DNA from: Escherichia coli
GTDB lineage: Bacteria > Pseudomonadota > Gammaproteobacteria > Enterobacterales > Enterobacteriaceae
Assembly (NCBI RefSeq): GCF_041886205.1
Contig: NZ_CP169029.1
Direction: 5' to 3' (one strand)
DNA: 64,000 bases
Shown: in pieces, positions 40,756 through 49,969 of the stretch
Layout of the letters: each line of letters begins with the position of its first letter
How positions within the stretch are numbered: the first letter of the stretch is position 1
Position numbers and translations under genes: made by a program
Notes under the pieces: generated by a model
Told to the model about the DNA's origin: nothing
The model's input: the letters and a program-made list of their open reading frames with translations, nothing else
Databases searched by the model: none

Positions 40756-42005
<1,250 letters not shown>

Positions 42006-43660: not shown

Positions 43661-45058
43661 ATTTTTACCCGAGTCGCTAATTTTTGCCGCAAGGTGCTAA
43701 GCCGCGAGGAAAGCGAGGCTGAACAGGCAGTCGCCCGTCCACAGGTGACGGTGATCCCGCGTGAGCAGCATGCTATTTCCCGCAAAGATATCAGTGAAAA
43801 TGCCCTGAAGGTAATGTACAGGCTCAATAAAGCGGGATACGAAGCCTGGCTGGTTGGCGGCGGCGTGCGCGACCTGTTACTTGGCAAAAAGCCGAAAGAT
43901 TTTGACGTAACCACTAACGCCACGCCTGAGCAGGTGCGCAAACTGTTCCGTAACTGCCGCCTGGTGGGTCGCCGTTTCCGTCTGGCTCATGTGATGTTTG
44001 GCCCGGAGATTATCGAAGTTGCAACCTTCCGTGGACACCACGAAGGTAACGTCAGCGACCGCACGACCTCCCAACGCGGGCAAAACGGCATGTTGCTGCG
44101 CGACAACATTTTCGGCTCCATCGAAGAAGACGCCCAGCGCCGCGATTTCACTATCAACAGCCTGTATTACAGCGTAGCGGATTTTACCGTCCGTGATTAC
44201 GTTGGCGGCATGAAGGATCTGAAGGACGGCGTTATCCGTCTGATTGGTAACCCGGAAACGCGCTACCGTGAAGATCCGGTACGTATGCTGCGCGCGGTAC
44301 GTTTTGCCGCCAAATTGGGTATGCGCATCAGCCCGGAAACCGCAGAACCGATCCCTCGCCTCGCTACCCTGCTGAACGATATCCCACCGGCACGCCTGTT
44401 TGAAGAATCGCTTAAACTGCTACAAGCGGGCTACGGTTACGAAACCTATAAGCTGTTGTGTGAATATCATCTGTTCCAGCCGCTGTTCCCGACCATTACC
44501 CGCTACTTCACGGAAAATGGCGACAGCCCGATGGAGCGGATCATTGAACAGGTGCTGAAGAATACCGATACGCGTATCCATAACGATATGCGCGTGAACC
44601 CGGCGTTCCTGTTTGCCGCCATGTTCTGGTACCCACTGCTGGAGACGGCACAGAAGATCGCCCAGGAAAGCGGCCTGACCTATCACGACGCTTTCGCGCT
44701 GGCGATGAACGACGTGCTGGACGAAGCCTGCCGTTCACTGGCAATCCCGAAACGTCTAACGACGTTAACCCGCGATATCTGGCAGTTGCAGTTGCGTATG
44801 TCCCGTCGTCAGGGTAAACGCGCATGGAAACTACTGGAGCATCCTAAGTTCCGTGCGGCTTATGACCTGTTGGCCTTGCGAGCTGAAGTTGAACGTAACG
44901 CTGAACTACAGCGTCTGGTGAAATGGTGGGGTGAGTTCCAGGTTTCCGCGCCACCAGATCAAAAAGGGATGCTTAACGAGTTGGATGAAGAGCCGTCACC
45001 GCGTCGCCGTACTCGTCGTCCACGCAAACGCGCACCGCGTCGTGAGGGTACCGCATGA
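43661..45058 (+). CDS. pcnB: poly(A) polymerase I PcnB (465 aa), AUU start codon
   Basis: Nucleotidyltransferase motif [17 protein letters not shown]; start assigned to ATT 43661..43663 preceded by GAGG, following the published AUU initiation of pcnB; ORF-track TTG start 43640 is 7 codons upstream. Confidence 0.85.
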
Positions 45059-45534
45059 CAGTGGCGTATATTGCCATAGGCAGCAATCAGGCCTCTCCGC
45101 TGGAGCAGGTCAATGCTGCCCTGAAAGCATTAGGCGATATCCCTGAAAGCCACATTCTTGCCGTTTCTTCGTTTTACCGCACCCCACCGCTGGGGCCGCA
45201 AGATCAACCCGATTACTTAAACGCAGCCGTGGCGCTTGAAACTTCGCTCGCCCCGGAAGAGTTACTCAATCACACACAGCGTATTGAATTGCAGCAAGGT
45301 CGCGTCCGTAAAGCTGAACGCTGGGGACCGCGCACGCTGGATCTTGACATCATGCTGTTTGGTAATGAAGTGATAAATACCGAACGTCTGACCGTTCCGC
45401 ACTACGATATGAAAAATCGTGGCTTTATGTTATGGCCGCTGTTTGAGATTGCACCGGAGCTGGTTTTTCCTGATGGGGAGACGTTGGCGACAAGGCTCAC
45501 CAATTTGAACGCCTTATGCCCACAACGCTGGTGA
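45055..45534 (+). CDS. folK: 2-amino-4-hydroxy-6-hydroxymethyldihydropteridine pyrophosphokinase FolK (159 aa)
   Basis: [59 protein letters not shown]...; ATGA overlap with pcnB stop. Confidence 0.95.
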
Positions 45535-45938
45535 ACTTGCTATAGCAAAGAGTAAATTCATTCAGCGTTTTTATTACGTTTTTTTAATATTAATTCTTTC
45601 TCAAATCTAAGCATAATATTTAATAAAACGCATTTCATAGCTTTCGTGTTTTTGTCTGTGCGCTAACTATTCTGACAATAGATTAGTTAAAAAAGTCTTC
45701 ACCACCTTATTGATACATTGAAAGAATAACAGATTTAACAACACAGGCTTTTTAACGTCCAATTAATAAAAATATCACTCAAACAAATAACTAAATATTG
45801 CATATACACACAGTGAATATTATTTATTTTATCGAACTTCACATTCACCAGATCTATTTTTATTCCATTTGTATAAGCTTTATAATTTGCTGAGGTGACT
45901 CTTCTCACCTCTCTATTATTTTTATAAGGACATTAAAT
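45535..45938 (+). promoter_or_regulatory. AT-rich leader/promoter region of the yad fimbrial operon (candidate H-NS target)
   Basis: 404-bp spacer, strongly AT-rich with A/T tracts and TATAAT at 45881..45886; inverted repeat gaggtga-ctcttc-tcacctc at 45892..45911 just upstream of yadN. Confidence 0.5.
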
Positions 45939-46511
45939 ATGTTAAAGAAAAGCGCTATTGCTGCGGCATTAGTTATGTTTACCAGTTCGGCCTTCGCGCT
46001 GGATGGCGGCCAACTGGATTTCGCAGGTTTGGTAAGTGACAACACGTGTATCCTGCACGTCAACGGTGGTGCACAGGATGGACAAATTAACCTGGAAACC
46101 GCAACAACGGCTGAAGTTACAGGTGCTGGCGTAGTCAATGCAGCCAATGTCGGCGCGAAAGCTGAACCGTTCTCTATTACAGTGGATTGCTCAGCAAACA
46201 CGCCTGCCGCCGCTGAAGCCAATCTGAATATGAGCTCAGTTTTCTTCAGTAACAGCCAGGGCACCCTGAATAACGATATGTCCGTAAGCCAGGCGGCAAG
46301 CGGCGTCGCTATTGCCGTTCACTATGTACCAAGCGCCGGCACTTTCGAGCAGGTCAAAATCAATGACAGCACCGATATTAAAAACCTCACGTTAACCAAC
46401 GGTAAAGGGACCTGGAACTTCCAGGCATCTTACGTTAAGCAGGCAGCGTCGATTCCTGTCGTTGCCGGGTTTGTGAAAACCAACGCGGCTTATACGATCA
46501 CTTACCCGTAA
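45939..46511 (+). CDS. yadN: fimbrial major subunit-like protein (YadN-type), 190 aa, signal peptide
   Basis: Signal peptide MLKKSAIAAALVMFTSSAFA; fimbrial subunit features (Cys pair, C-terminal ...AAYTITYP donor-strand motif); first gene of the chaperone-usher operon. Confidence 0.8.
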   Translation: MLKKSAIAAALVMFTSSAFALDGGQLDFAGLVSDNTCILHVNGGAQDGQINLETATTAEVTGAGVVNAANVGAKAEPFSITVDCSANTPAAAEANLNMSSVFFSNSQGTLNNDMSVSQAASGVAIAVHYVPSAGTFEQVKINDSTDIKNLTLTNGKGTWNFQASYVKQAASIPVVAGFVKTNAAYTITYP

Positions 46512-46573
46512 TTCAGATACAGACCAGGCAGTCGATGTCGGGCTGCCTGTATGACTTTAATAAGGACATCATT

Positions 46574-47317
46574 ATGACCAGGACGCGTCAGTTACTCCTT
46601 GCTTCACTTTTCACCTGCGCAGGTGCATTAGCCAGCTTTTCTGCCTGTGCCGATATTGTGCTTTCCGGCACGCGTATTATTTACAACGCAAACCAGAAAG
46701 AAGTCTCCCTGCGTATGGAAAACAAAGGCAGCCGCCCGCTGCTGGTACAAACCTGGATCGATACCGGGAGTGAAAACGCGGATCCCAGCACCATCACCGT
46801 GCCTTTTACCGTCACGCCACCGGTCTCTCGTGTGGACGGTAAACGTGGGCAGACGGTGAAAATCGCCTGGAATACCAGCCAAACGTTGCCCGCCGATCGC
46901 GAAAGTGTTTTCTGGTTCAATGCGCTGGAAGTCCCCCCCAAAATGAGCGAGACCGAGGCTCAGGGGAAAAATATCCTGCAACTGGCGTTCCGCACCCGCA
47001 TCAAGCTGTTTTATCGCCCGGCTAACCTGGTCGGCAGCGCCCCGGACGCCCCCAAACAACTGACCTGGCATCTGCAATCCTCTGGCGGGAAAGTTGTGCT
47101 TCAGGCCACTAACCCAACGCCATTTCACGTCTCTTTCAGCAGCATTAGCCTGATTTCGGGCGGAAAAAAATACGCCGTCGACGCCACGATGGTCTCCCCA
47201 AAAAGCAGCGCTGACATGACAGTGAAAGGTCTGAGCACTGCATCTGCTGGTGCAACGATTGAATATACCGCCATTAATGACTTCGGCGGTGCCATTGAAG
47301 GCAAAGTGAAGCTTTGA
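46574..47317 (+). CDS. yadV: PapD-like periplasmic fimbrial chaperone (YadV/EcpD-type)
   Basis: Start at MTRTRQLLLASLFTCAGALA (ATG 46574, AAGGA RBS); PapD-like two-domain chaperone. Confidence 0.85.
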   Translation: MTRTRQLLLASLFTCAGALASFSACADIVLSGTRIIYNANQKEVSLRMENKGSRPLLVQTWIDTGSENADPSTITVPFTVTPPVSRVDGKRGQTVKIAWNTSQTLPADRESVFWFNALEVPPKMSETEAQGKNILQLAFRTRIKLFYRPANLVGSAPDAPKQLTWHLQSSGGKVVLQATNPTPFHVSFSSISLISGGKKYAVDATMVSPKSSADMTVKGLSTASAGATIEYTAINDFGGAIEGKVKL

Positions 47318-47347
47318 CGCACTGACTAACTACGCAGGGATTGCACA

Positions 47348-49969
47348 ATGACGACGCCTTTCAACGGCACAAAATTTCCCCTCTCTCCACTCGCTTGTCT
47401 GGTGGCGTTCAGTCTGCTGCCCTGCGCCTACAGCGCCATGGCGGCAGAGGAAGCTGTTGAATTTGATAACACCTTCCTGATGGGGGCCGGTGCCAAAAAT
47501 ATCGACGTCAATCGCTACAGTGATGGCAACCCCGCATTGCCAGGCCGTCACGACGTAAGCGTGTTTATCAACAATAAGCCGATCAGCAATCTGTCCATGG
47601 AGTTTATTGAAATAGCGAATAGCCGTAGCGCCAAACCCTGTATCTCTGCCAGCACCCTGCTCCAGCTGCATATTCGCCTGCCGGATAATCTCGACGATAC
47701 GGCGATTTTGCAAAAGCGCGACAGTACCGCGCAGGACTGTCTTAATCTTGAGGTCGCCATTCCCCAGTCCAGCCTCACCTATAACAGTAACGATCAGCGG
47801 ATGGACATTAATGTGCCTCAGCTGTGGTTACAAAAAACTTACGCTAACTATGTGGATCCTTCCCTGTGGGACGAAGGGATCAACGCAGCCATGTTTTCTT
47901 ACACGCTGAATGGCTGGCGCAGTGAATCGCCCGATCAAACCGCAGAGAGTACCTATGCCGGGCTGATGGGCGGCTTTAATTTATGGGGATGGCATTTCCG
48001 TTCGCACGGCAACTATTCATGGGACAAAGAGAGTGGCGGCAGTTTCGAGTTCCAGGACAAGTACCTGCAACGTGATATCACCAGGCTGCGGTCACAACTG
48101 GTTGTCGGTGAAACCAACACTACGGGGGAAACCTTTGATTCCGTTCGTATTCGCGGTGTTCGTCTCTACAGCGAAAGCCGCATGCTGCCACCGACGCTCG
48201 CCTCTTACGCGCCGGTGATCCGTGGGGTCGCGAACTCCAACGCCAAAGTAACAATTACCCAGAACGGCTACAAGATTTACGAAACGACGGTGCCGCCAGG
48301 CCCCTTTGCTATCGATGATTTGTCGCCAGCCGGATTTGGTGCCGATCTCGAAGTCACGGTCACCGAGTCTGACGGCTCACAGCGAACATTCACTCAGGCC
48401 TATTCGTCGGTGATCCAGATGATGCGCCCCGGCGTGGGCAAATGGGACATCAGCGCGGGTGAAATCAAAAAAGATGAGCTGAAGGACAAGCCCAATCTGA
48501 TACAGGGAACGTACTACTACGGGTTAAGTAATACGTTTACCGGCTATACCGGCCTGCAAATGACCGATAACGGCTACTGGGCCGGATTGTTAGGCCTTGG
48601 GATGAACACCTCATTGGGGGCATTTTCTCTTGATGTGACGCAGTCGCACACCGAAATCCCCAACGACAAAACCTATGAGGGCCAGAGCTACCGTATTTCG
48701 TGGAACAAATATTTTGCACCGACCGAAACGTCACTCAACATTGCGGCCTATCGCTACTCGACAAAAAACTATCTCGGTTTGAACGACGCCCTGACGCTGA
48801 TCAACGCTGCTAACCATCCTTATGATGAAGGTTACAAGGGAATCGTCTCCTATGGGCGTATGAAAAACCAGTTCAGCGTCAGCCTCAACCAGACGTTAAA
48901 AAATAGCGAGCGGGATTATGGTTCCTTCTACTTGAACGGGACATGGACGGACTACTGGGCCACTAATGAATCACAGAGTAGTTTTGCGTTTGGTTACAGC
49001 AGCGGCTTTGACTGGGCCAGCTACAGCGTCAGCCTGCAACGTACCTATGACGAAGACAATAACAAAGATGACTCTATCTATCTCAGCCTGACCATTCCGC
49101 TGGACAAACTGTTCGGCAGCGATAGCCGCGAAGGTGGCTTTAGGACACTGAATACCAGCGTCAACAGCGATATGAAGGGCAGTTCGCAATACAACGCTAA
49201 TGCCACCGGCTACAGCCAGGACAACCGCTGGAACTACAGCGTCAACACCTCCTATAACGCATTGAAAGAGACGGAAAGCCTGAAAACCATCAGTGGTTTC
49301 ACCAGCTATGAGTCACCCTGGGACACCCTTTCCGGTTCCGTCTCCGCCAGTAGCGACCACAGTCGTCAGTATGGCGTGAGTACCGATGGCGGCTTTGTGT
49401 TACATCGCCACGGGCTTACGTTCAGTAACGACAGCTTTACCGATTCAGACACGCTGGCGCTGGTCAACGCCCCCGGCGCGAAAGGTGCGCAAATTAACTT
49501 TGGCAGCAGTACCGTGGACCGATTTGGCTACGGGGTAACCAGTGCGCTTTCTCCGTATCATGAAAACACCGTCGCCCTCAACGTGGACAACCTGGATGAA
49601 GATGTGGAACTGAAAAGCACCAGCACCGTCGCGATCCCGCGCCAGGGTGCGATTATCTTCAGCCATTTCGACACCGACACCGGGCGTTCAGCCATTCTTA
49701 ACCTGCTGCGCAGTGATAAGCAGCCCGTACCGTTTGCTTCCGATGTGACAGACAGCAGCGGGCAGTCCATCGGCACAGTTGGGCAAGGGAGCCAGGCTTT
49801 CGTTCGCGGCATTGCCGACGAAGGGGAGCTGGTGGTTTCCTGGTATGAAAAAAATAGCCAGAAACAGTGCCGCATTCACTACCAGATACCGCCCTCTCCC
49901 ACCATGACGGGCAAAACTATCGTATTAAACGCCGTGCCCTGCACCCTGCAATCACAGGAGAGGAAATGA
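47348..49969 (+). CDS. htrE: fimbrial outer membrane usher HtrE (873 aa)
   Basis: 873-aa ORF with signal peptide and usher-size beta-barrel protein between chaperone and minor subunits. Confidence 0.9.
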   Translation: MTTPFNGTKFPLSPLACLVAFSLLPCAYSAMAAEEAVEFDNTFLMGAGAKNIDVNRYSDGNPALPGRHDVSVFINNKPISNLSMEFIEIANSRSAKPCISASTLLQLHIRLPDNLDDTAILQKRDSTAQDCLNLEVAIPQSSLTYNSNDQRMDINVPQLWLQKTYANYVDPSLWDEGINAAMFSYTLNGWRSESPDQTAESTYAGLMGGFNLWGWHFRSHGNYSWDKESGGSFEFQDKYLQRDITRLRSQLVVGETNTTGETFDSVRIRGVRLYSESRMLPPTLASYAPVIRGVANSNAKVTITQNGYKIYETTVPPGPFAIDDLSPAGFGADLEVTVTESDGSQRTFTQAYSSVIQMMRPGVGKWDISAGEIKKDELKDKPNLIQGTYYYGLSNTFTGYTGLQMTDNGYWAGLLGLGMNTSLGAFSLDVTQSHTEIPNDKTYEGQSYRISWNKYFAPTETSLNIAAYRYSTKNYLGLNDALTLINAANHPYDEGYKGIVSYGRMKNQFSVSLNQTLKNSERDYGSFYLNGTWTDYWATNESQSSFAFGYSSGFDWASYSVSLQRTYDEDNNKDDSIYLSLTIPLDKLFGSDSREGGFRTLNTSVNSDMKGSSQYNANATGYSQDNRWNYSVNTSYNALKETESLKTISGFTSYESPWDTLSGSVSASSDHSRQYGVSTDGGFVLHRHGLTFSNDSFTDSDTLALVNAPGAKGAQINFGSSTVDRFGYGVTSALSPYHENTVALNVDNLDEDVELKSTSTVAIPRQGAIIFSHFDTDTGRSAILNLLRSDKQPVPFASDVTDSSGQSIGTVGQGSQAFVRGIADEGELVVSWYEKNSQKQCRIHYQIPPSPTMTGKTIVLNAVPCTLQSQERK

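Follow-up and report, generated by a model that had tools for sequence, protein, structure and literature searches.

A rare YadN-like fimbrial allele of Escherichia coli carries a conserved dyad predicted to form a 5′-terminal mRNA hairpin

Hairpins at the 5′ end stabilise E. coli mRNAs and impede RppH, the classic cases being ompA and papA, and bla mRNA with an appended hairpin is likewise stabilised (PMC3997798, whose references 92-95 include Emory, Bouvet & Belasco 1992, Arnold et al. 1998 on ompA hp1, and Bricker & Belasco 1999 on papA). Recent work links Yad fimbriae to the colonisation of bloodstream and tissues by ExPEC, and H-NS represses the yad promoter in K-12, CFT073 and EC958, a repression that is relieved in serum and in tissue (PMC13245861). 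We describe here the leader of a major-subunit gene at the yad locus, in which a dyad close to the start codon proves to be a genuine and conserved cis element, familiar in kind; the fimbrial operon is a cryptic one and the allele rare. The analysis narrows the control region of this one rare allele from 404 bp to ~140 bp and predicts its transcription start. It invokes no new mechanism, since stabilising 5′ hairpins, CRP operators and the silencing of fimbrial promoters by H-NS are each well established.

The window, by which we mean the whole 64-kb stretch of E. coli DNA that was analysed, contains pcnB, folK, a fimbrial subunit gene, a chaperone gene, an usher gene, four further fimbrial genes, panB and panC, in that order. 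Between the end of folK at 45534 and the start of the subunit ORF at 45939 lies the 404-bp spacer that is studied here (Table 1). The locus position and operon architecture are those of the K-12 yadN-yadV-htrE-yadMLKC operon, and the likeness to the yadN region of K-12 and ExPEC includes the placement of the seven-gene chaperone-usher operon between pcnB-folK and panB-panC and the long AT-rich spacer; for K-12 yadN, a hairpin is also predicted at an equivalent distance from the start codon. The sequences differ, however. The subunit shares 51% amino acid identity with K-12 YadN, GGTGA-N6-TCACC is absent from K-12, and comparison of the leader with the K-12 folK-yadN spacer detected no DNA homology, a forced alignment being without real similarity.

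Searches of 5426 complete E. coli genomes (blastn, near and distant modes) found the leader in eight, of which seven match at ≥99% and one (GF4-3) at 93%, and returned no match to any genome with a K-12-type leader. The names “yadN” and “folK-yadN spacer”, which the earlier note had used, imply the K-12 locus and do not fit these figures. Because the leader lacks homology to the common yad leader, K-12 data are not transferable to it. Similarity of folK to its K-12 counterpart ends at codon 144, which puts the left junction at ~45486, inside the folK 3′ end, and makes the last 15 folK codons part of the replaced segment. The nearest subunits are those of Pseudocitrobacter (75-85%) and E. albertii (71-75%). 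Judged by sequence, the gene is a rare YadN-like replacement allele at the yad locus, not K-12 yadN.

The replacement appears to be wider than the leader: the whole yad-locus fimbrial operon (window 45480-53000) is a replacement allele, with the last 15 folK codons, the leader and the subunit resembling Pseudocitrobacter or E. albertii. An E. albertii-like leader type occurs in another 15 of the 5426 complete E. coli genomes. A scan of GTDB genomes with the subunit protein yielded a single locus, in P. faecalis, and tblastn against plasmids retrieved only K-12-like yadN, on chromosomes mis-filed as plasmids.

Table 1. Features of the spacer and subunit gene, in window coordinates; numbers with a minus sign are relative to the predicted transcription start.
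Feature	Position	Strand	Remarks
Whole folK-to-subunit spacer	45535..45938	+	404 bp, 27% GC; conserved among related leaders only in the last ~140 bp
Upstream block A, ATATACA-cacag-TGAATAT	45802..45820	+	Conserved; imperfect dyad with ATTCA/TGAAT-like half-sites; about -91 to -73
Block CATTCACC	45842..45849	+	All lineages have TTCACC starting 37 bp upstream of TATAAT; about -51 to -44
TATTTTT tract over the -35 region	45855..45861	+	Conserved; poor match to TTGACA, at most 3/6
TTATAAT, predicted sigma-70 -10 element	45880..45886	+	Position invariant; variants TATACT and TATGAT
Predicted transcription start	45892..45894	+	6-8 nt past the -10 element; invariant N7 between TATAAT and GGTGA
Dyad GAGGTGA-ctcttc-TCACCTC	45892..45911	+	Core GGTGA 45894-45898 and TCACC 45905-45909; predicted 5′-terminal stem-loop or CRP-like operator
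U/A-rich unstructured linker, hairpin to ribosome-binding site	45912..45924	+	12-15 nt in all lineages
Shine-Dalgarno block TAAGGACATT	45925..45934	+	Conserved; core AAGGA, 8 nt before ATG; common even to distant Yad-type leaders
Fimbrial major subunit gene	45939..46511	+	190 aa, PF00419; opens a seven-gene chaperone-usher operon between folK and panB

The earlier note, made from the sequence alone, had described the spacer as an AT-rich leader with H-NS-type tracts, a TATAAT hexamer and a perfect 7-bp dyad. Its coordinates are exact (a 404-bp spacer, TATAAT at 45881-45886, the dyad at 45892-45911 and 27 nt from dyad to ATG), and the AT-richness that it noted is real: the spacer has a GC content far below the 52% of the window, holds the lowest-GC 404-bp stretch in the whole 64 kb and contains ten A4+/T4+ tracts. 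Silencing of this AT-rich upstream DNA by H-NS, as at other yad alleles, is plausible; for the rare allele it is an analogy, since K-12, CFT073 and EC958 carry a non-homologous leader. The minus-strand sequence TCGATAAAAT at 45826-45835 matches nine of the ten positions of the high-affinity H-NS motif TCGATAAATT. Matches to this motif with ≤2 mismatches are not enriched in the leader, as many being found in 17 of 158 other 404-bp tiles.

The dyad consists of GAGGTGA (45892-45898), a ctcttc loop (45899-45904) and TCACCTC (45905-45911), the arms being perfect reverse complements. Perfect 7-bp inverted repeats with a 3-10 nt loop turn up in 37% of the leader's dinucleotide shuffles and number 88 in the window, and the repeat by itself is insignificant against the shuffles; repeats with ≥4 G/C per arm arise in only 0.36% of them. 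What makes the dyad more than chance is its core, which is found at a fixed distance from TTATAAT in all leaders of its type in other genera while the neighbouring bases are randomised. The description as a perfect 7-bp repeat is correct for the window, but the outer 2 bp are lineage-specific and the conserved core is the inner 5 bp. A second exact GGTGA-N6-TCACC (GGTGACGGAGTTCACC) lies at 41199-41214 of the window, inside the thpR coding region, and is probably a chance occurrence.

Comparison of the DNA upstream of graded homologues of the subunit, every one of them downstream of folK, revealed a module of ~140 bp with the order CATTCACC, 5 variable bases, TATTTTT, ~18 variable bases, TTATAAT-N7, GGTGA-N6-TCACC, linker, TAAGGAYATT, 3-4 bases and ATG. 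It is carried by E. coli GF4-3, Pseudocitrobacter faecalis, a P. corydidari-like locus, Escherichia of the E. albertii type and metagenome contigs. Among these carriers the N7, the loop and the linker vary freely in sequence, and the leader upstream of ~45800 is unrelated between lineages. Of the 404-bp leader, conservation is limited to the last ~140 bp. In E. coli VE-T9 (L063 1749-2446), an IS1 is inserted in the non-conserved upstream part of the leader, at about window position 45606, and the 140-bp module is intact. Pseudocitrobacter corydidari-like loci and locus L012 have the subunit gene in duplicate, and there the module precedes the second copy, in a spacer of 200 bp headed by a covarying terminator-type hairpin. 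Lying behind a terminator hairpin, the module would act as an independent promoter/UTR unit. A metagenome scan whose pattern fixed the flanks and allowed any arm sequence returned 44 stretches, four of them genuine loci; all four have identical arms, and no new arm variants were found among them.

The TATAAT hexamer picked out in the earlier note has the marks of a genuine -10 element: it never changes position, and the only two variants (Table 1) retain A-11 and T-7, the bases of greatest weight for sigma-70. A consensus promoter scan left this promoter uncalled because of its poor -35 region, and made a single call, a weak minus-strand site. We infer from the sequence a real promoter that would be weak or activator-dependent. 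Since the length of the N7 stretch between TATAAT and GGTGA is invariant, the stem always begins at the predicted +1/+2. A literature search found no mapped transcription start for yadN or for any other yad allele. TTCACC as a -35 element would require a -10 hexamer 17 bp downstream, which is not conserved, and was rejected on that ground. Block A lies ~40 bp upstream of CATTCACC and may be an activator site; the second-gene leader of L005 has a perfect ATTCA-N5-TGAAT version. ATTCA/TGAAT motifs are repeated in the two upstream blocks (45802-45820 and 45842-45849), which together are likely to form a putative activator-binding site. In the leaders of a distant gene, the Salmonella and Citrobacter first subunit gene (L014/L015 1150-1175), ATTCACC-N3-TATTTTT recurs only ~30-50 nt before the ATG, which leaves no space for a -10 element and a hairpin.

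That the dyad is an element in its own right next to the start codon, as the earlier note had suggested, is borne out by this comparison, in which a core of fixed spacing stands among randomised surroundings and is probably functional. The 20-mer is predicted to fold at -9.3 kcal/mol (z = -2.5), and every predicted orthologous UTR has the hairpin in its minimum-free-energy fold (-5 to -9 kcal/mol), the stem being short and weak outside the window's lineage (-5 to -7 kcal/mol); z-scores for folds of whole UTRs are not significant. The second-gene leader of L012 has the arms GATGA-agagtt-TCATC, a compensatory change from G-C to A-U. In L010 ([Enterobacter] lignolyticus), GGGTGA, a 9-nt loop and TCGCC disrupt the palindrome at the DNA level as well as the 6-bp spacing, and the arms pair only via a + strand G·U. 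The stems of L007 and L012 are lengthened by G·U pairs. Formally, covariation gives the stem little support: identity at the five core pairs is 11/12, a single change is truly compensatory, and covariation shuffle controls are unremarkable. Eight lineages otherwise share the same arms and a loop of constant length, 6 nt, a constraint that exceeds the needs of pairing and is the pattern expected of a protein-binding site.

Distant and paralogous Yad-type leaders have unrelated hairpins at an equal distance from the Shine-Dalgarno sequence, three of them after a -10-like hexamer: TATAAA-N7-GAGTTCATAAT-ttt-ATTATGAGCTC in L013 (Salmonella enterica; -10.6 kcal/mol), GATAAT-N8-AATCTC-attttca-GAGATT in L062, and TATAAC-N6-GAGAAATA... 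in the first-copy leader of L005. The K-12 yadN leader has TAGTCA...TGACTA. In most types the leader is at its most structured in the 36-nt segment from -58 to -23 relative to the ATG, as measured by how many other 36-nt segments of the same leader are at least as stable: 0/103 in the leader of the window, 0/106 in L007, 0/100 in L013, 0/74 in L062, 1% in K-12, 2% in the first copy of L005, and 4% in L004 and L008. The first-gene leaders of L014 and L012 have little or no hairpin. Combined by Fisher's method over seven types, excluding the type used to choose the segment, p = 1.4e-4, to which base composition near the promoter may contribute. These results suggest that Yad-type major-subunit leaders, that of K-12 yadN included, commonly place a hairpin at the 5′ end of the mRNA. 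The earlier note had left the dyad as either a stem-loop or a regulator site. The stem-loop is the better supported of the two, through one compensatory change, changes that G·U pairing tolerates and the unrelated hairpins in the same place; the regulator reading is possible, as the core fits CRP geometry.

We give an even chance to the explanation that we favour, in which the dyad is a 5′-terminal mRNA stem-loop of the ompA/papA stabiliser type, with TATAAT as the -10 element and a start at ~45892-45894. The last ~140 bp of the spacer would be a self-contained promoter and 5′ UTR for the major-subunit gene. RNA polymerase is predicted to start 6-8 nt downstream of TTATAAT, so that the mRNA would begin directly with the dyad, which would fold into a stem of 5-7 bp with a 6-nt loop and 0 or 1 unpaired 5′ nucleotide. 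The paired 5′ end would hinder both pyrophosphate removal by RppH and 5′-end-dependent attack by RNase E, and the subunit mRNA, whose product would be required in large excess over the other operon products, would therefore live longer. The U/A-rich linker and the strong AAGGA site would remain single-stranded for ribosome loading.

The predicted UTR resembles those of ompA and papA in having a short hairpin within a nucleotide or two of the (here predicted) 5′ end, with unstructured A/U-rich sequence and then a strong ribosome-binding site after it, and resembles papA further in that the gene downstream of the hairpin encodes a fimbrial major subunit, required in excess. It differs from both in that its 5′ end is predicted from a -10 element and its stem is shorter, at 5-7 bp. 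The papA 5′ end arises by RNase E processing of the papBA transcript, whereas that of the yad allele would be the end of a primary transcript.

The same dyad could be read at the DNA level, as an operator for a CRP/FNR-type dimer, possibly cAMP-CRP, that would cover +2 to +17, block RNA polymerase and repress; this reading, which is compatible with the hairpin, we consider possible though on the unlikely side. GGTGA-N6-TCACC has the exact geometry of the CRP site TGTGA-N6-TCACA, with two inverted 5-bp half-sites exactly 6 bp apart, G5, T6, G7 and A8 kept, and only position 4 deviating, with G for T in both half-sites. In selected CRP sites, position 4 varies without loss of affinity and positions 5, 7 and 8 are extremely conserved (PMC2504297). 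Arms of invariant sequence and a 6-bp spacer of invariant length but free sequence, in eight lineages, are the classic footprint of a dimeric protein; the conserved CATTCACC block holds a third copy of TCACC, and GTGA-N6-TCAC occurs only five times in the 64 kb. The CRP-critical bases and the 6-bp spacing are kept in all but two module-type leaders, across several genera, and these two speak against CRP: L012 alters the critical G5 symmetrically in both half-sites, so that pairing is kept and a CRP site would be lost, and L010 changes both half-site and spacing (9 nt) with the RNA hairpin retained. The G at position 4 is, moreover, fixed in every GGTGA/TCACC-armed half-site of the module type, though CRP prefers T, and the distant Yad leaders have hairpins at this position without CRP-like sequence. 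A site centred at ~+9.5 from the predicted start would lie outside all CRP activation classes, including I and II, which would leave repression only. The operon has no regulator gene, and a literature search found no regulator that binds the GGTGA/TCACC palindrome. A CRP site serving as class II activator of a minus-strand promoter was discarded, since the -10 region that it needed falls in a non-conserved stretch. It is doubtful that the dyad works at two levels, as a DNA operator for CRP or a CRP/FNR-type dimer at +2 to +17 and as a protective RNA hairpin, within a portable ~140-bp promoter/UTR cassette that moves with Yad-type subunit genes between Escherichia, Pseudocitrobacter and relatives and is reused before a second subunit copy.

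Other readings accept the RNA hairpin and assign it another role, or deny it any. Recognition of the stem-loop by an RNA-binding protein, by sRNA/Hfq or by the ribosome, for control of translation instead of stability, would account for arm conservation beyond the pairing requirement; the U/A-rich stretch beside the hairpin is reminiscent of Hfq-type sites, and of the two arms the left, GAGGUGA, looks like a Shine-Dalgarno sequence and the right, UCACCUC, reproduces the 3′ end of 16S rRNA. The left arm has, however, no start codon at a usable distance, the actual Shine-Dalgarno sequence lies 13-15 nt from the hairpin and is unpaired in all folds, and distant leaders use unrelated hairpin sequences, which makes such a role quite improbable. 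A CsrA site was rejected because, except in L012, the arm has no GGA motif, and a leader peptide because no start codon follows the SD-like arm, the 31-aa TTG ORF at 45798-45893 looking spurious. An Rfam scan of 44800-46800 at a permissive E-value gave two chance-level matches, the better being DUF2815 RNA at 18.6 bits against a gathering threshold of 41.2 (E = 3.2). The hairpin and the T-rich sequence after it also recall a Rho-independent terminator, here an attenuator against read-through from pcnB-folK or from spurious leader promoters: the G/C-containing stem at 45892-45911 followed by TCTATTATTT was flagged by a loose consensus scan for terminator-like sites, as the sole + strand site downstream of folK. 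The number of such sites does not exceed that in shuffles (3 found vs 1.9 expected), and the orthologue stems, 5-6 bp long and of the stability given above, are too short and weak; their first 8 nt after the stem are not U-rich (e.g. CCCAUUAA in L008), the U5 run coming 8-10 nt from the stem instead of adjoining it. Duplicated loci already have a strong terminator ahead of the module. We hold termination here to be highly improbable. Attenuator pairing between the upstream TCACC block and GGTGA was dismissed, there being no covariation between them. Finally, the dyad might be a functionless chance palindrome riding in a recently shared promoter segment, as the commonness of perfect 7-bp repeats in the shuffles and the window and the lack of conservation of its outer 2 bp would allow. 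The invariance of core and spacing across genera, with adjoining positions saturated with changes, the rarity of G/C-rich arms in the shuffles and the preservation of pairing by those arm changes that do occur make this very unlikely.

In the loci with a duplicated subunit gene, a strong hairpin follows the first subunit copy in L005 (~1790-1825), L006 (~1790-1825) and L012 (~1785-1815), and its arms covary between lineages (GTACGGTA/TACCGTAC, GCACGGTA/TACCGTGC and GCACGGCAC/GTGCCGTGC); from its sequence, it looks like an intercistronic terminator or stabiliser.
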